A DNA stretch of 64,000 bases from a virus, in the IMG/VR virus record IMGVR_UViG_3300008448_000004, positions 1-64,000 of that record. The stretch is one strand, 5' to 3'. This document shows positions 1-60,332 of this stretch, one piece after another. Position 1 is the stretch's first letter; the number at the start of each line of letters is the position of its first letter. Below the pieces are notes generated by a model that searched no databases, had not been told where the DNA came from, and saw nothing but the letters and a program-made list of their open reading frames with translations. Made by a program: the position numbers and the translations under genes.

Positions 1-2645
1 GGTGTTTGAGTTACTGTGTTTGTAGGAGTGTTAGTAGGTGTACTAGTTTGAGTGGGGGTTTGTGTTGAAGTATTAGTTGGAGTTTGTGTTGCAGTCTGTG
101 TTGCAGTTTGAGTTGGTGTAGTTGTACGGGTAGGGGTTTGAGTAGGTGTCTGTGTAGGTGTGTTAGTTGGAGTTTGAGTACTGGTAGGAGTTTGAGTATT
201 AGTTTGAGTAGGGGTGTTTGTAGGAGTCTGTGTTGAAGTTTGAGTATTAGTAGGGGTCTGTGTAGTTGTATTGGTAGGAGTATTAGTAGGGGTTTGAGTA
301 GCTGTCTGAGTAGGGGTTTGAGTACCGGTTGGTGTATTTGTAGGAGTTTGCGTAGCTGTATTTGTAGGAGTACTGGTGGGAGTGATTGTACTGGTAGAAG
401 TCTGTGTAGGAGTCTGTGTTGCAGTTTGAGTTGGAGTTACTGTTGTAGTTGGAGTTTGGGTACTCGTTTGTGTCGGTGTATTTGTAGGAGTAGCTGTACC
501 GGTCGGTGTCTGTGTTGGTGTTTGAGTTCTAGTTTGAGTAGGAGTGATCGTATTAGTAGGGGTATTCGTTGGAGTTTGAGTAGAGGTACTAGTTGGAGTT
601 TGGGTATTTGTAGGAGTCTGCGTAGCTGTCTGGGTAGGAGTCTGTGTTGGAGTGTTTGTAGGAGTCTGTGTTGATGTCTGAGTATTTGTAGGGGTGTTAG
701 TAGGGGTATTAGTTGGAGTGTTTGTAGGAGTTGTAGTAGTAGTTGGTGTGTTGGTTGGTGTATTTGTGGGAGTTTGCGTAGCGGTATTGGTAGGTGTTAT
801 AGTATTGGTAGGAGTATTAGTTGGAGTTTGTGTAGGGGTGTTAGTTGAAGTGTTTGTGGGAGTTTGAGAAGGAGTCCTAGTTTGGGTTGGTGTCTGCGTC
901 GATGTACTTGTAGGAGTTTGCGTAGCGGTATTGGTAGGAGTTATAGTACCGGTAGGAGTATTTGTAGGGGTGTTAGTAGAGGTCTGTGTTGTAGTTTGAG
1001 TAGGAGTTGTAGTGTTGGTAGGAGTATTCGTCGGTGTCTGTGTCGGTGTGTTAGTGGGAGTTATAGTATTTGTAGGAGTGTTCGTTGGTGTCTGTGTTGC
1101 GGTATTAGTAGGTGTGACTGTATTAGTAGGAGTTTGAGTGGGAGTATTAGTTGGAGTTTGTGTAGGGGTAGTGGTACGGGTGGGGGTTTGGGTGCTAGTC
1201 TGTGTTGGAGTGTTCGTAGGAGTTTGTGTAGGAGTTATGGTATTAGTAGGTGTGTTGGTTGGAGTTTGGGTAGAGGTCTGTGTTGGAGTATTTGTAGGGG
1301 TTGTGGTATTAGTAGGGGTGTTAGTAGGAGTCTGAGTACTGGTTTGAGTAGGGGTATTTGTCGGGGTATTAGTTGGAGTCTGGGTAGAGGTCTGTGTTGC
1401 GGTATTAGTTGGAGTTATAGTATTGGTAGGTGTGTTAGTAGGAGTATTGGTTGGAGTGTTTGTTGGAGTATTAGTTGATGTTGCTGTATTTGTAGGTGTC
1501 TGTGTTGCAGTTTGAGTGGGAGTTTGAGTTGGAGTTTGTGTATTAGTGGTAGTATTAGTTGGTGTATTCGTAGGAGTTTGAGTAGATGTTTGAGTAGGTG
1601 TTACGGTATTTGTAGGAGTATTTGTAGGGGTTTGTGTTGCAGTTTGCGATGGTGTAGAGGTTTGAGTAGGAGTTTGAGTTGGAGTTTGGGTATTAGTTTG
1701 TGTTGGTGTTATAGTATTTGTAGGGGTGTTAGTAGGAGTTTGAGTACTAGTTTGAGTAGGAGTTACTGTGCTAGTAGGAGTTTGTGTACTTGTACTTGTA
1801 GGAGTGTTTGTAGGTGTTGCTGTCTGGGTAGGAGTCTGTGTACTTGTATTTGTAGGGGTATTAGTAGGAGTTTGAGTATTAGTAGGTGTCTGAGTGCTGG
1901 TTTGAGTAGGAGTTTGGGTTGGTGTAGTTGTTGGAGTCTCAGTAGCGGTAGGGGTTTGGGTAGAAGTCTGTGTTGGTGTTACAGTACCAGTAGGTGTTTG
2001 GGTAGGAGTTTGTGTTACGGTAGCTGTAGGTGTTTGAGTAGGTGTCTCTGTATTTGTAGGAGTTTGAGTAGGGGTACTAGTATTTGTCCGGGTTGGAGTG
2101 GGGGTTTCTGTGTTTGTAGGGGTGTTTGTAGGTGTTTGGGTGTTAGTAGGGGTTTGTGTAGGTGTCTCTGTATTTGTAGGAGTTTGAGTAGGGGTTTGTG
2201 TAAGTCCTACGGTTGGAGTATTGGTTGAAGTAGGTGTATTTGTTGGAGTAAAAGTAGGAGTTTTGGTAGTTGTAGGTGTCGGAGTAGCAGTGCGAGTTGG
2301 TGTAGGTGTTGCTTGAGCTGTTCTTGTAACAGTTGCAGTCGGTGTTGGTGTAATTAGTGAACCGATAACGAAGGTAAAGCTACAATCTAAGCCAGGAGTA
2401 GGCGTAGGCGTAGGTGTCGGTATAACAATAGGGATCGTAAATATATCAGTACATATGCCAACTCCATCTAATATAATATTTACTGCTGTATTCGGAAGAT
2501 TATTAACAGTGTATCCTGCTACTAGTTCTGTACAAGATACATTAGATGCGAGTAAGTTCGCAGGTGTAACACTATCGTAGTATAGGTCGAAAGGCCCTGT
2601 AGACGACCCGCAACTAGTGATTTGTATTACTGCTGATACTAACAT
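1..2645 (-). CDS. Very long Thr/Pro-repeat (mucin-like) virion protein, runs off the left edge of the window
   Basis: Missing from the ORF track because there is no stop in the window. ATG at 2645 gives [36 protein letters not shown]..., followed by continuous TPTQTPTNT repeats for at least 881 codons. A TATTTATA motif lies 16 nt upstream. Confidence 0.9.
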
Positions 2646-2660
2646 TCCTTATATTGTAAA

Positions 2661-2668
2661 TATAAATA
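2661..2668 (-). promoter_or_regulatory. Putative late promoter CTATTTATA
   Basis: 16 nt upstream of the Thr/Pro-repeat gene start. Confidence 0.65.
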
Positions 2669-2702
2669 GAATTTTTTAGGTTTTTAACTTAATTTTCACT
2701 GA

Positions 2703-3629
2703 TTAAAATTCATAGGCATTTACAGTTATAGACCCGTCACCTGTAGGATTATATGTGCCATAACTATTAACTGCGGTAGTAGGATCTGTTGCTGTATTGT
2801 TATATATAGTACTTCCGTTATCTACTACAGTTAAGCCGTTATATGCATCGTTAACCCCGTCACTTGTTGTGTAAGTATACACTGATATAGTATCTGCACC
2901 ATACGCGGTGAAATTGCCGCTACCGTTAGAAGTAAGAGTTACTACCGTATTTCCGTTCCTGCTAATTGCCATGTAAGCAGCGGTTGCAGTAGTCGTAAAG
3001 CTATAAGATATTGTAAACGATGTTGTCGGGGTAGGGGTCGGTGTTAGAGTATTAGTTGGTGTATTAGTTGGGGTGAGAGATATTGTTAAGGTAGGTGTTG
3101 GAGTAGGAGTAGGGGTTGCTAGTATGTTATTACAAGCATTTGCACCATTAGTTCCTCCTTGATCGTAAAGTGTTGTAGATAGCGGGTAAAGTCCTTTTAC
3201 GCTGTTTACCGAAGTTACTGGTGTGTTTGAATAGATGTAGTTAACATAGCAAGGGTAGGGAGTCTGCCCGGAAACAACTACACAATCTCCGTAATCTTTA
3301 TACCACCATTGGCTGTATGGTGTAAAGTTAGGATCGCTAGGAAAGTAGCCGTAAGCAACGGGTATATTTGAACCAGATTCGGTGAGTTCACCACTAGTAC
3401 AGTTTCTATACTTTGTAATTGCATAAATATCAGTACAGTCTATCCAGCTATCTATGTAACCGTTTTCTAAAACCGTAGCGCATTTTACTCCATCGGAATA
3501 CTGTCCAGCATTAACCGGTACGTACTGACTTGCTGAATAGGCATAGAGGTAGCAGCCTATGTTAAAGGTTGAACAGTTAGAGTACAGTGTCGATGAGGTA
3601 GCTTCGCAAAATCCAGGTCCAACAGCCAT
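2703..3629 (-). CDS. Putative virion protein: two beta-rich/Cys-rich domains joined by a TPTPT linker
   Basis: 308 aa ORF, Tyr/Cys/Thr-rich, with central [10 protein letters not shown]...TPTPTPTPT, located among structural genes. Confidence 0.7.
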   Translation of the reverse strand: MAVGPGFCEATSSTLYSNCSTFNIGCYLYAYSASQYVPVNAGQYSDGVKCATVLENGYIDSWIDCTDIYAITKYRNCTSGELTESGSNIPVAYGYFPSDPNFTPYSQWWYKDYGDCVVVSGQTPYPCYVNYIYSNTPVTSVNSVKGLYPLSTTLYDQGGTNGANACNNILATPTPTPTPTLTISLTPTNTPTNTLTPTPTPTTSFTISYSFTTTATAAYMAISRNGNTVVTLTSNGSGNFTAYGADTISVYTYTTSDGVNDAYNGLTVVDNGSTIYNNTATDPTTAVNSYGTYNPTGDGSITVNAYEF

Positions 3630-3643
3630 ATCTTAAAAAATTA

Positions 3644-6600
3644 TTATTCTTCTAATGCTACAAAACATAAGTATGTACAGAAACAAGAACTCAATCCTAC
3701 ATCATAGGTTAATGTTAATGGATAGTAAGTTACAGGGTAACAGTTGTTAACATCCACGCATAAGGTACCTAATCCTGTAGTATTAACAGCTACAGCATTT
3801 CCGGTTCCACACCCTCCATCTGCTGCTGAGATATTCCCGATTGTTCCTTGTCTGATACAAGCTTTTACAGTTTCGAAAGGTCCTATTGCAATACATCCAG
3901 TATTATTCTGCCTTGTAATATATGATGCATAGACTTCAAAACTGTTAGGGTTGTAAATCTCTGTACAATCTCCTAACTCTTCCGGTGTAGGAGTGGGTGT
4001 TCTGGTAGGAGTAAGAGTTGGTGTTTGAGTTGGAGTTTCTGTATTGGTAGGTGTAATAGTGTTAGTAGGAGTTGCTGTATTAGTTGGTGTTTGAGTTGGA
4101 GTTTCTGTATTGGTGGGGGTAAGGGTATTAGTAGGAGTTATTGTACTAGTGGGAGTTACTGTGTTAGTGGGGGTTCGAGTGGGAGTATTAGTAGGAGTTT
4201 GAGTTGGGGTATTTGTAGGGGTATTGGTAGGAGTATTTGTAGGAGTATTTGTAGGGGTGTTAGTAGGGGTATTAGTTGGAGTTTGAGTAGGAGTGTTTGT
4301 AGGAGTGGTGGTTCTAGTAGGGGTTTGAGTATTAGTTTGAGTAGGTGTCTGTGTTGGTGTATTGGTTGGTGTATTTGTGGGAGTTATTGTTCTAGTTGGA
4401 GTTTGAGTGGGTGTTTGTGTTGGCGTATTGGTTGGTGTATTTGTGGGAGTAGCAGTTCTAGTAGGAGTATTAGTAGGTGTCTGTGTCGGTGTATTTGTAA
4501 TGGTCTGTGTTGGTGTCTGTGTTGCAGTAGGTGTTTGTGTTGCTCCAGAAGTCTTAGTGGGAGTTTGAGTAGCCGTATTAGTTGGGGTCTGAGTAGGAGT
4601 ATTTGTAGGAGTAGTGGTTCTGGTGGGAGTTTGGGTAGAAGTGTTTGTTGGGGTATTCGTAGGAGTACTAGTTCTAGTAGGTGTGTTAGTACTAGTTTGA
4701 GTTGGGGTATTTGTAGGAGTTTGAGTAGCTGTATTTGTTGGAGTTTGCGTCGGTGTGGTAGTAGGAGTTGTGGTTTTTGTCGGAGTATTTGTGGGAGTTT
4801 GTGTGCTGGTTTGCGTTGGAGTATTAGTGGGTGTTTGTGTTGGTGTGTTTGTAGGAGTAGCGGTTCTGGTAGAAGTGTTGGTAGGAGTTTGAGTTAAGGT
4901 GTTTGTTGGGGTGTTTGTTGCTGTCGAAGTAGGGGTTTGAGTAGCTCCTGTAGTTCTAGTAGGAGTCTGGGTTGTGGTATTAGTAGGAGTTTGTGTGGGA
5001 GTTTGAGTGTTTGTAGCTGTATTTGTTGGAGTGTTTGTAGGTGTAGTTGTTTTAGTGGGTGTCTGTGTTGAGGTTTGAGTTGGTGTTTGAGTAGGGGATA
5101 ATGTTACAGTATTGGTAGGTGTTTGGGTTGTAGTTTGTGTAGGAGTTAATGTGGGAGTATTAGTAGGGGTTTTAGTACTTGTAGCGGTTTGTGTCGGTGT
5201 CTGCGTTGGTGTCTGTGTAGGTGTTCCGGTGTTGGTTGGAGTTTGAGTAGGGGTATTAGTAGGAGTTTGAGTTGCAGTTTCGGTAGGGGTCTGTGTAGGA
5301 GTTTGAGTTGCAGTTTCAGTAGGTGTTTGTGTTGAAGTTGCAGTATTAGTTGGAGTTTGAGTAGTTGTAGGTGTGTAGGTTGGTGTAATTGTGGGAGTGG
5401 GGGTATTTGTAGGTGTGTACGTAGGTGTTGGGGTGGGGGTAGAGGTTGCTGCTAAAGAACAGTTAACCGATACCGTATACTCTCCCCCGCAAGGAGCATC
5501 TATAATTAAAGTAGCTGTTGTAGGAAATGCGGCTGTCTTACTGAACGATAAAGTGCCGGTTCCTGCTGCGATCACTGGATCTCCTGATAGGCATGTAGCG
5601 TATGCAGCACAGCTTGTATTAAAGCAATCTCCTACATAGCCACTTGTGTAAGTGTTGCCGTCCCATATTAGAGTAAACCTATCCGGTATGAAGTTTGTTA
5701 TATAGTCTATGCCTACAGTACCCGTAACTGCGCCAATATTAATTGTATACTTTGCAGTGTAAGGGGGTGCTGTTCCTTGTAAAGTATCACCGCAGTTTAG
5801 TGTTCCTATAATAGCTAGATCTGTTGGTGTAGGTGTTGATGTTCTTGTAGGTTGTGGAGTTCGTGTAGGAGTCAGTGTAGTCGTAGGTGTTGTAGTGGGT
5901 GTAGAAGTTTCTGTAGATGTTGGCGTTACTGTCCTTGTGGGTTGTGGAGTTCTCGTTTCAGTAGGTGTAACTGTGTTGGTTGGAGTCTGGGTAGGAGTTA
6001 TTGTGTTAGTTGGGGTTTGAGTAGCAGTGGTTGTGTTAGTTGGAGTTTGTGTTGGGGTTTGGGTGTTAGTTAAGGTAGGAGTTGTTGTGTTAGTTGGGGT
6101 TTGAGTAGGGGTTTCGGTACTTGTAGGAGTTTGGGTAGGGGTTTCTGTGTTAGTCGGAGTTACTGTACTGGTAGGAGTATTAGTAGGTGTTTCGGTAGGA
6201 GTTATAGTATTTGTAGGTGTATTAGTAGGTGTCCTTGTAGGTGTTACAGATATTGTAACCGTTGGCGTAGGAGTTTCGGTACTTGTAGGAGTTTGGGTAG
6301 GGGTTTCGGTACTTGTAGGAGTTTGTGTAGGAGTACTTGTAGTAGTGGGAGTGGGGGTATTACTATTAACAGGAGTTCCACTCAATGTAGGTGTAGGGGA
6401 TTCAGTCGGCTGCGGTGTTCTTGTAGATGTTGTTGTAGGAGTAGGAGTAGGTGTGTTTGGGGTTATAGTTACGGTCGGAGTATTAGTAGGTGTTATTGTG
6501 TTAGTTGGAGTCTGTGTAGGCGTCTCCGTAGAGGTGGCGGTGGGGGTGTTTGTAGTTGTAGTAGTAGGTGATGGGGTTTGAAATGGTGTTTGGGTAGGAG

Positions 6601-7054
6601 TTTGGGTAGGAGACGAGGTTGGCTCGGGAGTTCTGGTTGGAGTTTGGGTAGGGGTTTGGGTTGCTGTGATGCTGGGTGTTGGTGAGTTACTAGGAGTGAA
6701 TGTAGGTGTTGGTGAGTTACTAGGAGTGAATGTAGGTGTAGGGGAATTACTCGGTGTAATGCTAGGAGTAATAGTGTTCGTAGGAGTGATAGAAGGTGTT
6801 ATAGTGTTTGTAGGAGTAGGAGTAGGAGTTGGCTGTCCAATGCCTGGAATCGGTTCTATAACTATGTTGTTACAGCCTGGTTGTATATTTTCTAATATAA
6901 TTAGAGTTGCTGTAGAGGGTAGATTGACTATGTAAGGAAAATCTACTAAAAATATATTAGCTGCAACTTGAGTTAGGGAAGAAACAGTATCGTAATATAT
7001 GTTAAAAGGTCCTTGTGCTCCACCTCCTGTTATCTGTATTGAGTAACTTGCCAT
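3644..7054 (-). CDS. Thr/Pro-repeat (mucin-like) virion protein with N-terminal, central and C-terminal globular domains
   Basis: 1136 aa ORF with two long TPT blocks. The N-terminus is similar to the ORF starting at 2645. No signal peptide. Confidence 0.85.
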
Positions 7055-51945: not shown

Positions 51946-52545
51946 TTACGCTAAGTAAGAATAGTACTCTTTAAAATGCTTAATTCGATCCGGAAGGCCG
52001 ATTGTACCTCCGTTTACTTTTTTGGTAACTGCTGTTACGACTGCATCGGTAGCTCCTTTATCTGCATCTAGATTTATCTTTCTACTATTCCAATACCATG
52101 CTGCAGAAAGGAGAGGGTACTTTGTTGATACTAAGTCCGGATTCTCGAGGATATTTTCTGTAACAATAACGTCAAAGGCTTTATAGTTATCTTTACCAGT
52201 AAGCTGAATATAACCACGACCACGATACTTCCAACCTTCACCAGATGCTTTATCACCATTTCCCATGCGAGACGCATAAACAATGTTAGCAATCTTCTCA
52301 GGCTTACGCTCATATAATTTAGCAGTTGCTTCATCGGGGAAGTATTTTTTGAAGGTAGTCAATAATCCTTTTGCTCCGTAGTTTAAATTTTCGTTAACTA
52401 CTTTGAAGCCTCCTGATTCATGTCCACATTGAGCTAGGAAATGGGCTAAACGTAGCGGGGTATTGATCTGAAACTTCGATATTGTGTCTGGTATTTGAGC
52501 TAAAACAGCTTCAGGTACGTGACCTTTTAGTTTATCTAAATTCAT
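51946..52545 (-). CDS. GH19 (chitinase-like) endolysin
   Basis: LAHFLAQCGHESGGF...ENLNY...YASRMGNGD...YRGRGYIQLTGKDNY...SAAWYW...VNGGTIGLPDR. Confidence 0.93.
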   Translation of the reverse strand: MNLDKLKGHVPEAVLAQIPDTISKFQINTPLRLAHFLAQCGHESGGFKVVNENLNYGAKGLLTTFKKYFPDEATAKLYERKPEKIANIVYASRMGNGDKASGEGWKYRGRGYIQLTGKDNYKAFDVIVTENILENPDLVSTKYPLLSAAWYWNSRKINLDADKGATDAVVTAVTKKVNGGTIGLPDRIKHFKEYYSYLA

Positions 52546-53821: not shown

Positions 53822-53843
53822 AAGGTTAAGTTAATTAGTACAT

Positions 53844-53877
53844 AAAAAAAGGCTACATATATTCCTATATGTAACCT
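53844..53877 (-). terminator. Rho-independent terminator after the TonB receptor/lipoprotein operon
   Basis: AGGTTACATATA-GGAA-TATATGTAGCCT followed by a T run. Confidence 0.8.
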
Positions 53878-53921: not shown

Positions 53922-55109
53922 TTACTGTCCTTTTATAGGGAATCTAGTCCATCCATTAATCCAAGTAGGCATAGCAATCTCCGGAATCGTTATGCTAATC
54001 TCTTTATTTCCTTGAGTTAATGCTTTTACTTTTACGTCATCTGAAGTAATAACTGAAGACTTGCTTATAAAGTTTAAACTGGGTATAAAAGATCCTACCG
54101 AGTTATCTTCGAATTTAGACGTACCATCTTTATAAAAGGTAGCAGTCTCATTTGATTCTAAACTGAATCCTCCTTTCATATAGCCGAAGAATGTTGAGTT
54201 GGTAACAGTAAATTGTGTAGCTCTTCTGAATCTTAGAGCTAGGTTATGGTTAGTCAAAGCATCAGCGACGTTAGGGCCAATTAAAACTAACCCTATCAGC
54301 TTTGGATGAGTGAATGGTTGAGCTGTAGAGCCTACACCGTCGTTATCACACTCAACTCCGTTACCGGCATCTCCGTTATCTACAAACTGCGGATCACGTT
54401 TTGCTATACTATTACTAACAGTTCCAGTATAACCGAAATCAAAATCGTAATCATCATCTGCTGTAGCAAATGCATATAAATTTTTAGGCGATACAGTACC
54501 GCCGAAGAATTCAAATGCATCGTCGTTAGCGTAAACTGTTTGCACGTATTCAATTATAGTGCCTGAACCTACGGCGCCTAAAGTAAGTGCGTTAATTTCA
54601 GAGTTAGGTAAAGCAGCAATGCCGGCATATTCGATACGAACATACTTCAGTATACCGCTATTGTCGCTATCATCGGTACCTCCGTAAGGACGTCCCACGC
54701 CTCCTTCAATAGTTGGTTCAGATGAACGATTAGTTTTAGCTTTACCCAAAATAATAATACCGCCCCAGTCACCAGGAGATCTCTCGCCGGCGATTTTACC
54801 TGAAGTGAATATGATTGGCTTTTGAGCAGTTCCTTCAGCTAGTATCTTTGCTCCTCTTTCGATACACAAAGCACCTTTTTCTGCAATATCACTTTTGATT
54901 ACAGTACCTGGTTGGATGATAAGAGTAGCACCTTCTTTAACATAAACGTACCCTTTTAATGTCCATTCCTTATCTGATGTTAAAGTTGTGGTTGTTGTAA
55001 TATTACCTGTTATAATTTTGTCTATAGGTACATTGATTGGTTCATCCACAGGACTCTTTTTACATGCAAATAGACCGATAAGTACTAACAGCGATACTAG
55101 CTTTTTCAT
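53922..55109 (-). CDS. Bacteroidota-type surface lipoprotein with parallel beta-helix repeats, partner of the TonB receptor
   Basis: Lipobox LFAC followed by KKSPVDEP; GDWGGIIILGKA, DNSGILKYVRIEYAG, NDDAFEFFGG, DDDYDFDFGY, NGVECDND, WINGWTRF. Confidence 0.85.
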   Translation of the reverse strand: MKKLVSLLVLIGLFACKKSPVDEPINVPIDKIITGNITTTTTLTSDKEWTLKGYVYVKEGATLIIQPGTVIKSDIAEKGALCIERGAKILAEGTAQKPIIFTSGKIAGERSPGDWGGIIILGKAKTNRSSEPTIEGGVGRPYGGTDDSDNSGILKYVRIEYAGIAALPNSEINALTLGAVGSGTIIEYVQTVYANDDAFEFFGGTVSPKNLYAFATADDDYDFDFGYTGTVSNSIAKRDPQFVDNGDAGNGVECDNDGVGSTAQPFTHPKLIGLVLIGPNVADALTNHNLALRFRRATQFTVTNSTFFGYMKGGFSLESNETATFYKDGTSKFEDNSVGSFIPSLNFISKSSVITSDDVKVKALTQGNKEISITIPEIAMPTWINGWTRFPIKGQ

Positions 55110-57361
55110 AAATTAAAGTTTAATGATAGTGAAATTGTTTGTTCGTTATTTGTTTTAATTAGATCACCTCTTGATTTTTGATAGTAGATAGACGGTTGGG
55201 CTAGTATATCGCTTATCGCTAACTTAATCTCACCTTTACCTGCTTTACGTAGATAAACTACATCAACCACATCTCTTGAATTTTCAAAGATGTCTGAGTA
55301 GCCTTGAAAGCCTACAGCAGATATTCTATCTCCAGTTCTATTATAGGATACATTAAAAGTATTCTTATTCTTATGTATATTGACTCCGCTATTAACTACA
55401 TAATCAGATTGACCTTGTAACCTTCTCTTAAGTCCGGTACCGGTAACCTGAGAATGTATTAGGGAACTATTCGTATAGATTTCTAACCACTTGGTAACAT
55501 TCTTTCTCACTTCTACTTCTATACCTACTGTTACTGCTTTCTTGGGATTAGAAAATGTTAATAGTAGGTTAGAAGGTACAGAACCATCTGCTACAATCTG
55601 TTCAATAGGGTTAGTGAATTGTTTACCGAATAAACTAACAGATATATTCTCTCCAGCTTTAGGATAGTATTCCCATTTCAAGTCCAAGTTATAGATGTCT
55701 GTCTTTTTAAGATTAGGATTACCGAGCAGCTGAGCATTTCTTACAAAGTCGTAGTAGGCAAAGTTAGCTACCTCTCTAAATTCAGGACGTGCTAAAGTCT
55801 TTGAAGCTGAGAAGCGATACTTCACTTTATCTAAACTATAGGATAGGTTAATAGAAGGTAGTATATCTAGGTATACTCTATTGACGTTAAGTCTCTGTCC
55901 AGAAAAGTCTGCAGTATATAAATCAAATATATTATATTCACTTCTAAGACCTCCGGATACTTTTAATTTTTTAAATTGATTATCATATTGAATGAAGCTG
56001 CTTCCTAAAAAGAAATTAGCGGTATACCTGTCTGTATTATTTGTTATTTCCTCTAATAAGTCTTCTCTCTGGTATCTAAATATTCTTGCTTTAAAAGCTC
56101 TACCTCTTTGTAGGTAGTTTGCACCTACTTTAAAGTTACTCAACTCTTTAGATAAACCTAAGTTGAAACTCTCTTCGTTCATATCAGACCAAAACCTGTA
56201 TGTATCCCTCCACGCTACAGTGTATAGATCTTCTGTACCTAAAGATCTGACTTTAGGAGTTACTCTATAATCAGGCTGATCTCTTACCATAAGATTGAAT
56301 CCTGCTTGAGCATCCCAGGACTTTATTTTTGCTTCTATCTGTGAATTTAAAAATGTCTTGATAATATTATTTGTAGAAGTAGTACTAACTTGCTGTACGT
56401 TGTCGTAGTTTAGTCCTGATCTTGTTAGGTAAGATCTATCTATCTGTCTGTTGAAATTGGTCTTGAATGTATACTTGTTCTCTCCAAGGTAGGTTAGGTT
56501 TAAGAAACTATTTAAAAGAGAGGTGTTGGTGTAGACAGTATCTTTGTACTTGTACGCTAATTCAGAGCTTGATTGGTAATCTAACCTATCAATATAATTT
56601 AAAGTATAGTTGTTTCTAAAAGACGTATTAAACAATATTCCAAGTTTACCTCTTTTATTTCCTACTGTAAAGCTGCTATTAAGGTTAGGAAAGGATGTAA
56701 ACTTCTTTACGGGTGGAGTTTTTATAAGAGACGTGTACTGCTCTTTTTGAACATTGTTAGATACTCTATAAAGGTAAGTACTAGGAAACGTGGAGGGGAA
56801 CACCGCTTGGTGTACTAATTTAAAATCTCTCGCGGTTGAAATCGTCCCCCATCCACTTCCTATTCCTGCTGAAATAAAGTTACTTGTAACCTCTTTTAGG
56901 TTAACTTGAATTATGCCACCTGCAAAATCTCCCGGTAAGTTTGGGCTTGCTGATTTTAATACAATAATATTATCTATAAGTCCTGTAGGTATGATATCAA
57001 AAGAGAAAGCTCTTCTATCAGGCTCGGTAGAAGGTAGTACCGTTCTTCCTATCATTGCAACATTATACCTATCCGATAGACCTCTGACTAGTACATATTT
57101 ATCAGACTGTATCGTTACTCCGCTAACTCTCTTAAGAGCATCACTAACAACTCTGTCAGGTGTTCTTTTTAAAGCTTCAACAGAAACTCCATCCGAGATA
57201 GAAATATTGTTCCTAACTGTTGATATAACAGCTGAAATGTTTTCTTTCTTTGCGGAAGAACGAACTACTATTTTCGAAAGAGTCTGGTTAAATAAAGTGT
57301 CTTGTGAAAAACTAACTTGTGTTATGAAGAGACAAGCAGTAAGAAAAAGCCTAGCAACCAT
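55106..57361 (-). CDS. TonB-dependent outer-membrane receptor
   Basis: Signal peptide; plug domain SDALKRVSGVTI...VLVRGLSDRYN...FSFDIIPTGLIDNIIVLKSASPNLPGDFAGG; barrel segments SASKTLARPEFRE, GNPNLKK, DLKWEYY; C-terminal ISLSLNFNL. Confidence 0.93.
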   Translation of the reverse strand: MVARLFLTACLFITQVSFSQDTLFNQTLSKIVVRSSAKKENISAVISTVRNNISISDGVSVEALKRTPDRVVSDALKRVSGVTIQSDKYVLVRGLSDRYNVAMIGRTVLPSTEPDRRAFSFDIIPTGLIDNIIVLKSASPNLPGDFAGGIIQVNLKEVTSNFISAGIGSGWGTISTARDFKLVHQAVFPSTFPSTYLYRVSNNVQKEQYTSLIKTPPVKKFTSFPNLNSSFTVGNKRGKLGILFNTSFRNNYTLNYIDRLDYQSSSELAYKYKDTVYTNTSLLNSFLNLTYLGENKYTFKTNFNRQIDRSYLTRSGLNYDNVQQVSTTSTNNIIKTFLNSQIEAKIKSWDAQAGFNLMVRDQPDYRVTPKVRSLGTEDLYTVAWRDTYRFWSDMNEESFNLGLSKELSNFKVGANYLQRGRAFKARIFRYQREDLLEEITNNTDRYTANFFLGSSFIQYDNQFKKLKVSGGLRSEYNIFDLYTADFSGQRLNVNRVYLDILPSINLSYSLDKVKYRFSASKTLARPEFREVANFAYYDFVRNAQLLGNPNLKKTDIYNLDLKWEYYPKAGENISVSLFGKQFTNPIEQIVADGSVPSNLLLTFSNPKKAVTVGIEVEVRKNVTKWLEIYTNSSLIHSQVTGTGLKRRLQGQSDYVVNSGVNIHKNKNTFNVSYNRTGDRISAVGFQGYSDIFENSRDVVDVVYLRKAGKGEIKLAISDILAQPSIYYQKSRGDLIKTNNEQTISLSLNFNL

Positions 57362-57441
57362 ATGAGAGATTAAGTTTAATTAGTACTCTCATACCTAGTT
57401 GAAAAGCTTACTCTAACCTCAATTCTAGTATTAAGTATATA

Positions 57442-57789
57442 TTAAGATTCGCTCTCAGAATCCTGATCAGCTATTTGCTGCTTACCTTTTTCGGTTAAGA
57501 ATAACCACTCTACTCCTTCAGCATCTTCAACACTATCGGCATAACCTCTATCAACGAGAGAGTTAACAATCGACTCAGCTAACGATCGCATTATTAGATC
57601 TTGAGCTTCTTCTTCTTCCCATACTAGTTCTGCTCCATTAGTCCATTTTGTAAATAAGGACTCTGCTAGAACTCTCTCCAGTATGTCTCGATTAATCTCT
57701 TCTTCTTCCTGCCAGGACTCTACAATTATGCCTGCGGCTTGTTGAGCGACTTTCTTTACCTCTTCTGGGTAATGTTCTGCTGAAATCAT
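57442..57789 (-). CDS. Acidic hypothetical protein
   Basis: Start moved to MISAEHYPEE (57789); the ORF-track start lies inside the tmRNA 3' end. Confidence 0.7.
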   Translation of the reverse strand: MISAEHYPEEVKKVAQQAAGIIVESWQEEEEINRDILERVLAESLFTKWTNGAELVWEEEEAQDLIMRSLAESIVNSLVDRGYADSVEDAEGVEWLFLTEKGKQQIADQDSESES

Positions 57790-57804
57790 AACGTATGTTT
57801 TAAA

Positions 57805-58242
57805 TGGTGGAGATGACGGGAGTCGAACCCGTGTCTCCGAAAGAGACAATAACACCAACGTTTCACATGCTTAGTACTGCTTTCGGGCCCGTATGCTAAA
57901 CTTAGGCTAGCTGGGTCTGTCTACTGCACCGTAAGGGCTGACCGGTTATGGTCGAATCCACCACCTTGTTTTAATTGACTACAAGGAAAACTACGGCTCG
58001 CAATATGCGTCCGGATGCCGTCTCTATAGCGTACGACTCGCTGTTGTGTTCTGTTCCTAGGCTCTCTACCGCCCGATGCGGACTAGGCTGCTACAGCGTA
58101 GTCGGCGCCTACGAAAGACATTAAGTCTTCGAAGGTCATAGTTGACATTTCGTCATTTGTTGTTTAGTATCTTCTAAGGCAGTATACTCAAATGCCTGCA
58201 TGTGGTATTACCTCAACATTCGGATCAATACCAAACATCCCC
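57805..58242 (-). ncRNA. ssrA: tmRNA (ssrA), one-piece, 438 nt
   Basis: 5' GGGGATG pairs with CATCTCC-A-CCA-3' and gives the G3:U70 Ala determinant. T-arm GGGTTCGACTCCC. Pseudoknot 1 is GGCA/TGCC with AGTAT/ATACT. The tag frame ends ...DYAVAA-TAG (58083-58154). Confidence 0.96.
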
Positions 58243-59483: not shown

Positions 59484-60332
59484 TTAAGCACGGGAGTAGG
59501 TTACTTGCTCCCGTGTGATGTTGAATGCGAGTCTTTCGCCAGCAGTTCCGAGACGGTTCTTACTGAACTCCATTATGCAACGATTCTCTTCTCTATCGCG
59601 AGACATTTCGAGCATTGCGGAAGTCATATGCTTAAGACGGTTGCTTCCTAAGAAGTCTCCGTTCTTAGTTACTTGCTGAATAATCAGGAAGCAGGTATAT
59701 AGGCTAGCTTGGTTGTAGCCTTCGTTATGCTTTTCCATAAGATCTAAAATCCAGCTCTCAGCTTGAGACTTAGACATTCCGGAGTAATCCTGAACGGTAC
59801 GGCACACCTCAGCCCAAGAGTCTATGAGCACAAGATCGTAACCGTTCTGCAAGATTCGTTCGATAGCTACAACAGGATTCGTCTTAGCATAGTCGGCCAG
59901 GAATAGGATATCCAGGTCAGCGAAAGCAGGGAAACGTTTACAGTAGCGGAACATATCTATTCGGCCCATCTCTCCGGAGATGAATAGAACTTTCTTACCA
60001 GATCGCTTCGCACGATCTACAAAGTCAAGACCTACAGTCGACTTACCTACACCGGGACTACCGATAAGGATTACGTTTGTAGCGGGCATAAAGCCGCCTT
60101 CGGAGGAAATAAACTGGTCAAGATTCTTATTACCAGTTCTGATTGGAGAGAAGATTTGCTGATCAAAATTTAGATCTTTAATCCTAACGGTGTTTACATC
60201 GAAGGTACCGTAGTTAGTTTCCATTTTAGGAACTGAAGGATTGTTGCTGATTAGTCCGAGAGTCTTTGCTCGAACATAACCTACCATCTTACCCGTAGCA
60301 GGGTTCAGGAATTTTTGTTGTGTTAGATTCAT
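59484..60332 (-). CDS. RadA/Sms-like RecA-superfamily ATPase (without Zn finger and Lon domain)
   Basis: NLDQFISSEGGFMPA, GSPGVGKST Walker A, VLFISGEM, LVLIDSW Walker B, IIQQVTKNGDFLGSNRLKHM, SKNRLG. Confidence 0.85.
   Translation of the reverse strand: MNLTQQKFLNPATGKMVGYVRAKTLGLISNNPSVPKMETNYGTFDVNTVRIKDLNFDQQIFSPIRTGNKNLDQFISSEGGFMPATNVILIGSPGVGKSTVGLDFVDRAKRSGKKVLFISGEMGRIDMFRYCKRFPAFADLDILFLADYAKTNPVVAIERILQNGYDLVLIDSWAEVCRTVQDYSGMSKSQAESWILDLMEKHNEGYNQASLYTCFLIIQQVTKNGDFLGSNRLKHMTSAMLEMSRDREENRCIMEFSKNRLGTAGERLAFNITREQVTYSRA

Follow-up and report, generated by a model that had tools for sequence, protein, structure and literature searches.

The DNA analysed here, a stretch of 64,000 nucleotides (nt) referred to as the window, makes up the first 64 kb of the IMG/VR virus record IMGVR_UViG_3300008448_000004, a contig of 180,934 bp with a CheckV completeness of 100%. 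On its minus strand lie two adjacent genes, the first encoding a TonB-dependent outer-membrane transporter of 751 amino acids (positions 55106-57361; open reading frame (ORF) list and Pfam) and the second a surface lipoprotein of 395 amino acids (53922-55109; ORF list and the family PF28492 Beta_helix_4). It is argued below that this pair is probably a phosphorus-scavenging operon carried by a freshwater phage. The two ORFs have a 4-nt ATGA in common at 55106-55109, and the ORF list gives exactly the two intact, overlapping frames that had been described in the original prediction, an earlier reading of this DNA from its letters alone. The same reading held that the operon has its own terminator, and a structure of this type is indeed found after the second gene: a hairpin with a 12-bp stem and a 4-nt loop (53877-53850), which starts 45 nt past the lipoprotein stop codon and is followed by a run of seven T residues, so that the whole resembles an intrinsic terminator (53843-53877, minus strand). 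Scans for sigma-70-type promoters performed no better than on shuffled sequence.

The transporter starts with a signal peptide (about residues 1-20), and alignment with longer relatives places the end of its hydrophobic leader at SFSQ. The leader is joined directly to a TonB-box-like segment, LSKIVVRS (residues 28-35), which aligns with LSEVVVRS of the long forms. A Plug domain (PF07715, residues 57-148, 29.8 bits against a cut-off of 23.9 bits) and a barrel of the PF14905 OMP_b-brl_3 family (residues 398-747, E-value 1.4e-25) make up the remainder; in the model of the complex discussed below, the barrel extends to residue 751 with a predicted local distance difference test score (pLDDT) of 86. 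The profile TIGR01782 scores 164.6 bits, under its 310-bit cut-off. Both Pfam and the alignment indicate that the CarboxypepD_reg domain (PF13715/PF13620), which in longer forms separates the signal peptide from the TonB box, is absent, and an N-terminal extension has no room because the frame stays open for just 6 codons before the ATG. These results agree with the earlier description of a TonB receptor that has a signal peptide, plug and barrel, and no N-terminal extension.

In the lipoprotein, the lipobox ends at Cys16 (LFAC), a residue that is invariant in the family alignment and that is followed by K-K-S-P-V-D-E-P. The original prediction had seen Lys and then Asp or Glu after the lipidated Cys; the Lys is present, but acidic residues occur only at positions +6 and +7. 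Most relatives in the alignment carry a clearer export signal, C-x-K-D/E. An AlphaFold2 model of the protein is a right-handed beta-helix (pLDDT 88.9, predicted template modelling score 0.88), and its neighbours in a Foldseek comparison with the PDB are all beta-helix proteins, though weakly matched; no solved structure related to it by sequence was found. The family PF28492.1 Beta_helix_4 (ElpS / FII / BT4056 type) is a precomputed assignment for this protein, for all its listed relatives and for the host homologues, while our own scan against Pfam and NCBIfam profiles returned no match, the Pfam copy scanned being one that lacks the PF28492 model. No match to the SusD family of Pfam was obtained, and with a beta-helix partner the pair is not of the SusD type, as had been claimed. 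Every family-invariant residue in the alignment is kept in the window lipoprotein, among them an acidic set (D196, D197, E200, D218-D224, D247, N250, E253, D255 and N256) and the sequence GDWGG.

When the barrel (residues 150-751) and the mature lipoprotein were modelled together, the interface reached an ipSAE (interaction prediction score from aligned errors) of 0.80, whereas none of three controls exceeded 0.00. Of 80 solved complexes, 58 reach this mark, as do 2 of 110 mismatched pairs, counts that hold only roughly because alignments made for this analysis were used. The runs agree in at least 86% of the contacts, with a partner pLDDT of at least 90. On the barrel side, contacts fall on segments about 55-60 residues apart, a regularity expected for extracellular loops; on the lipoprotein side they include residues 244-248 and 257-263, which adjoin the acidic patch. 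The model supports a predicted role of the lipoprotein as a lid that covers the barrel on its extracellular side.

Phosphate genes and a candidate Pho box

The closest cellular copies of the pair are found in Aquirufa, a genus of freshwater Cytophagales, with 73% identity for the lipoprotein and 58% for the transporter; the next-closest belong to Chitinophagales and Sphingobacteriales. The transporter-lipoprotein family is widespread, being present in 198 of the 301 Bacteroidota genomes sampled. For comparison of neighbourhoods, 65 viral (IMG/VR) and 80 bacterial loci were fetched with the lipoprotein, and in every one that has both genes the transporter lies immediately upstream. In Aquirufa esocilacus, a Metalloenzyme gene and a PHO4 gene come after the pair and, farther away, another PHO4 gene together with Porin_O_P, and the locus also contains a Metallophos gene paired with a glycosyltransferase gene. 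In Flavihumibacter petaseus the order is PHO4, PhoU, one gene of no assigned family, the transporter, Beta_helix_4, a histidine kinase and a regulator, the best NCBIfam matches of the latter being PhoB. Within about 8 kb, PHO4 genes occur in 27 of the 80 bacterial loci, PhoU in 20, a kinase in 23, a regulator in 18 and Porin_O_P in 10. Two genomes inspected, those of S. salmoneum and Daejeonella, have no phosphate genes near their homologues.

Published work on what appear to be relatives of the pair points in the same direction. In Flavobacterium johnsoniae (F. johnsoniae), Fjoh_0545 has the same Pfam domains as the phage transporter plus PF13715, and Fjoh_0546 (lipoprotein 'FII') has a pectin-lyase fold; both are part of the phoBR operon, rank with the genes and exoproteins that phosphate depletion induces most strongly, and have products that make up an abundant part of the exoproteome (PMC8115612). 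Their induction is specific for phosphate, with repression under nitrogen and iron limitation (PMC8115612). The pair BT4055/BT4056 has been proposed to constitute a transporter with a lid and is conserved in 621 genera (10.1101/2023.03.17.533168), and ElpS of Caulobacter is a surface lipoprotein of phosphate starvation (PMC2996285). A link to phosphate starvation had been put forward in the original prediction; the literature (PMC8115612, PMC2996285, 10.1101/2023.03.17.533168) and the host neighbourhoods, with PHO4, PhoU, Porin_O_P and PhoB/PhoR-like genes beside the pair in Aquirufa and Chitinophagales, bear it out.

Upstream of the phage transporter, a candidate Pho box consists of two TTAATA direct repeats 11 bp apart (57429-57445, minus strand), 68-84 nt before the ATG. 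The strict motif, WTAAYA-N5-WTAAYA, stands for (T/A)TAA(C/T)A repeated directly every 11 bp. It occurs on the coding strand, once in the 64-kb window and once in the entire 180,934 bp. As about 0.9 matches per 64 kb are expected by chance, its presence is unremarkable and it is its position that counts. In a 21-kb Aquirufa locus, all motif sites are on the coding strand and upstream of genes, mostly 50-80 nt from the start codon and about 100 nt in the case of the transporter; the genes concerned are the transporter, both PHO4 genes, a DAO-family gene and a PlcP-like gene. The 2.6-Mb Aquirufa genome contains 8 strict matches, compared with 6 for a reversed control pattern. Five of the 8 lie upstream of phosphate-type genes, 4 of them in the locus and 1 before a PhoB-like regulator, and the other 3, being intragenic or unclear, were treated as chance occurrences. 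Promoters that carry TTAACA repeats with the 11-bp period include those of phosphate genes and that of a PhoB-like regulator (Aquirufa esocilacus, G001 C6:142955-151360 and C7:585043-585059; L152:5653-7099).

The motif also precedes the transporter gene in 18 of 55 other bacterial loci, the frequency in background windows being 0.7%. In a set of 31 non-redundant phage promoters, the strict form is present in 13 (background 0.35%) and a relaxed form in 25 (background 4.4%), counts that are not independent because the promoters are related to one another; most of the related phage promoters that have the motif carry it at -66 to -86. On the basis of these placements, repeats of the TTAACA type with an 11-bp period can be put forward as a candidate Pho-box consensus for Bacteroidota.

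Phage relatives and genomic context

The pair is truly phage-borne: independent contigs of related phages carry it beside homologues of other genes of this phage. In the 65 IMG/VR loci, the lipoprotein relatives are 55-89% identical to the window protein, and many close homologues reside on contigs of 160-185 kb. The viral flanks hold homologues of other genes of this phage that come from different parts of its genome, and the pair therefore appears to be a cassette that occupies varying positions in one group of related large phages. A 4-nt overlap of the two genes is usual in the viral loci and is missing in Aquirufa. The ratio of nonsynonymous to synonymous substitution rates (dN/dS) is 0.055-0.145 among the phage copies of both genes and 0.03-0.05 among Aquirufa species; purifying selection is strong on both genes and slightly relaxed in the phages.

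In the lipoprotein tree, a main phage clade of 47 rows (95% in the Shimodaira-Hasegawa-like approximate likelihood ratio test, SH-aLRT) is sister to Aquirufa (97%), the two together being supported at 100%, and a second, more distant phage clade lies outside both. The transporter tree places Aquirufa within the phage copies, beside one phage subclade (100%), and so exchange of the pair between phages and hosts may have taken place more than once. The window transporter forms a long branch in this tree (0.47) and evolves faster than the lipoprotein.

Aquirufa keeps the CarboxypepD_reg domain, as do about half of the phage transporters. The short forms, including the window copy and many others, have a common junction, ...SFSQ-DTLF..., and retain the TonB-box-like strand. 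On both trees the long forms are mixed with the short ones, at least 4-6 changes being needed, and even very close relatives differ in the domain (L045 as compared with L035 and L037), a pattern which suggests an exchange of alleles by recombination.

Some of the related phages have further genes of interest just 3' of the pair, namely a glycosyltransferase of family 2 (GT2) and a Metallophos gene, a PlcP-like calcineurin-like phosphoesterase that is 44-47% identical to the gene in the Aquirufa Pho locus. These are found in L035 (7545-8977) and eight other loci (L014, L016, L019, L021, L032, L034, L037 and L062), and L035 also has a class-3 lipase upstream. They resemble the PlcP-glycosyltransferase module for lipid remodelling that has been described (PMC4796936); the phage of the window lacks them. 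Their gene content suggests that phages with GT2, phosphoesterase and lipase genes may drive lipid remodelling under phosphorus stress.

In the phage of the window, the pair sits between an endolysin gene (51946-52545) on one side and replication genes on the other, where a DnaB-like gene is located at 59484-60332; a baseplate wedge gene, an RNA ligase gene and ThyA lie farther away. The guanine-plus-cytosine (GC) content is flat across the operon borders, and no bacterial housekeeping gene flanks the pair in the annotated neighbourhood. A phoH gene is found elsewhere in the phage genome, in which pstS, a tyrosine integrase and homologues of the host PHO4, PhoU, Porin_O_P, Metalloenzyme and Metallophos genes were searched for and not found. 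Megablast of the region against GenBank phages gave no match, PHROGs has no family for either protein, and tblastn against GenBank retrieved distant copies only, in the huge phage LR745206 and a few human-gut fragments.

Upstream of the operon there is a transfer-messenger RNA (tmRNA) gene (window positions 57805-58242, minus strand), a full-length match to Rfam RF00023 with 65 bits against a gathering score of 47. It lies about 440 nt from the transporter and was not called by ARAGORN; several related phage loci (L016, L022, L036) have a tmRNA-like 3' end (...TCCACCA) just upstream of the pair. Between the tmRNA gene and the operon, a small ORF encodes an acidic protein of 116 amino acids, counted from the ATG (57442-57792, minus strand); it matches nothing in Pfam or PHROGs, and none of the related loci examined has a homologue. 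At the far end of the window, positions 1-7054 have an extreme GC skew, up to 0.78, and span two very long minus-strand ORFs (3-2645, which leaves the window, and 3644-7054).

Proposed role of the operon

Taken together, the two genes are best explained as an auxiliary operon for phosphorus scavenging, probably switched on by host PhoB; we consider this reading likely, with room for doubt. The phage lineage would have taken the two-gene operon from the Pho regulon of an Aquirufa-like (Cytophagales) host. In an infected cell that is starved of phosphorus, host PhoB would bind the TTAATA-N5-TTAATA repeats and switch the operon on. The transporter would be exported by way of Sec and inserted by BAM, the machinery for beta-barrel assembly, and the lipoprotein would be lipidated and then flipped to the cell surface, where it would cap the extracellular face of the barrel, its invariant acidic patch helping to capture a phosphorus-containing substrate. 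Import into the periplasm would be powered by TonB-ExbBD of the host through the retained TonB box, and host phosphatases and PHO4/Pst carriers would complete the uptake, providing phosphorus for phage DNA synthesis.

A number of points weigh against this reading. The Pho box is a prediction drawn from comparative placement, its motif is AT-rich within an AT-rich genome, and literature searches returned no described Pho box in Bacteroidota; furthermore, the motif was derived from the same phage and host transporter upstream regions in which it was counted, which, like the relatedness of the phage promoters noted above, tempers the counts. Homology to Fjoh_0546, BT4056 and ElpS is argued from a shared Pfam family, fold, pairing and context. 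The lipoprotein is a weak match to the surface-export signal of Bacteroidota. By analogy, the absence of the N-terminal domain from the window transporter may also matter, as deletion of this domain in the SusC protein Bt1763 abolished its function, growth being lost (PMC7782687). Finally, an outer-membrane machine may be slow to build relative to the lytic cycle.

Receptor masking, a non-phosphorus substrate and a chimera are each less likely than a phosphorus-scavenging operon. Among them, a working importer for some other nutrient, such as a metal chelate or a glycan, survives best, although it is an unlikely explanation; the phosphate neighbourhood would then reflect co-regulation only. 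No substrate has been established for the family in any organism, a point that also counts against phosphorus scavenging itself, the fold resembles that of carbohydrate binders of the pectin-lyase type, and the homologues of S. salmoneum and Daejeonella lack phosphate genes nearby. On the other hand, in many genomes the pair has phosphate and PhoB/PhoR-like genes on its flanks, induction in F. johnsoniae follows phosphate and not nitrogen or iron (PMC8115612), and the cis motif is common to this operon and to PHO4 and PhoB-like promoters.

Slightly less probable again is a role in receptor masking, as a decoy or in superinfection exclusion, in which the pair would replace or cover a surface receptor used by competing or sister phages and import would be irrelevant. 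TonB-dependent transporters are common phage receptors, and the long branch and fast evolution of the window transporter, as well as the repeated absence of the N-terminal domain, could fit a protein that does not need to transport. Yet the TonB-box-like segment and the plug are retained, purifying selection extends over the whole length, the lipoprotein keeps all invariant residues of the bacterial family, and both the Pho-box-like site and the PlcP/GT2 neighbours in related phages point to phosphorus economy. An assembly chimera or host contamination, with both genes from a bacterial contig joined to phage DNA, is very improbable, since, against cellular homologues of 73% and 58% identity, dozens of independent viral contigs have the pair beside homologues of this phage's genes, the GC content is uniform across borders that no housekeeping gene adjoins, and the phage copies form a clade of their own with a common deletion junction and a common 4-nt overlap that Aquirufa does not have.

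Beyond the phosphorus-scavenging operon itself, a wider picture could be imagined, which we hold to be tentative and a little more open to doubt than to belief. According to this picture, freshwater Bacteroidota phages of 160-240 kb would possess a complete, energy-coupled importer wired to host PhoB through a hitherto undescribed Pho box of the TTAACA type, by which starvation of the host would be sensed and its scavenging surface expanded, and some relatives would in addition use PlcP and a glycosyltransferase to remodel host lipids. Phages would have lost the N-terminal domain repeatedly as an adaptation specific to them, one conceivable gain being escape from a host-specific TonB pairing or from a checkpoint in biogenesis.

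What is striking here is a phage that encodes the whole outer-membrane step, with the host regulatory site apparently kept. If the phosphorus-scavenging operon is as proposed, infected cells would probably gather phosphorus at times of scarcity, and the reading of host nutrient status by phages would extend beyond cyanobacteria to abundant freshwater Bacteroidota. The pair is also a compact natural handle on an uncharacterised and very common family of transporters with lids, the motif analysis offers a testable Pho-box consensus for Bacteroidota, and nature has already supplied an experiment on the role of the N-terminal domain, in the form of variants that have it and variants that lack it.

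Comparison with known systems

Phage genes related to phosphorus are known mainly from cyanophages (pstS, phoA, phoH), and their products act in the periplasm or cytoplasm. Literature searches found no report of a phage-encoded transporter-lipoprotein pair of the Pho type. Already known are 'SusC' genes of megaphages (PMC9723777) and Pho-box control in cyanophages (PMC10976474); new here are the candidate Pho box, the lost N-terminal domain and the PlcP-like and glycosyltransferase genes in related phages.

The most similar systems are Fjoh_0545/0546 and BT4055/BT4056, in which a Plug and OMP_b-brl_3 transporter is likewise followed by a lipoprotein with a pectin-lyase fold (beta-helix). Fjoh_0545/0546 belong to a phoBR operon, and the bacterial relatives of the phage pair also have phoB/phoR-like and other phosphate genes as neighbours. 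For BT4055/BT4056 a role as transporter and lid was proposed (10.1101/2023.03.17.533168), and the complex model presented here supports the same for the phage pair. Compared by description with Fjoh_0545/0546, the phage pair is distinguished by its location in a phage of lytic type, by a transporter without PF13715 and by the 4-nt overlap of its genes. ElpS is similar in that it is a surface lipoprotein which phosphate starvation induces and whose gene adjoins that of a TonB-dependent receptor, and differs in being alphaproteobacterial and released by a type II secretion-dependent protease (PMC2996285); a distant homology to the BT4056 family has been reported for it, and its tie to the phage protein runs through the literature. 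The SusCD glycan importers have the same architecture of a barrel with a lipoprotein lid, whereas in the window pair the partner is not of the SusD family, the barrel falls in PF14905 and there is no N-terminal extension.

With regard to phages, 'SusC' TonB-dependent receptors have been noted in the megaphages Mar_Mega_1 and LR745206 and were read as serving carbohydrate uptake, in accounts that give no lipoprotein partner, phosphate link or regulation (PMC9723777). The latter, a huge phage of 635 kb, has distant relatives of both proteins (LR745206.1:77475-81048), with 40% identity for the lipoprotein and 26% for the transporter, in an order opposite to that in the window, the lipoprotein match being upstream of the transporter match. 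The closest parallel in terms of control is provided by the cyanophage pstS and phoA genes, which carry Pho boxes and are controlled by host PhoBR (PMC10976474). In both cases a phage has genes of the host Pho regulon together with a host-type PhoB site, although this site is only predicted in the phage of the window and differs in sequence from the cyanophage Pho box. The products of the cyanophage genes are a periplasmic binding protein and a phosphatase, whereas the Bacteroidota phage described here carries a complete active-transport unit of the outer membrane.

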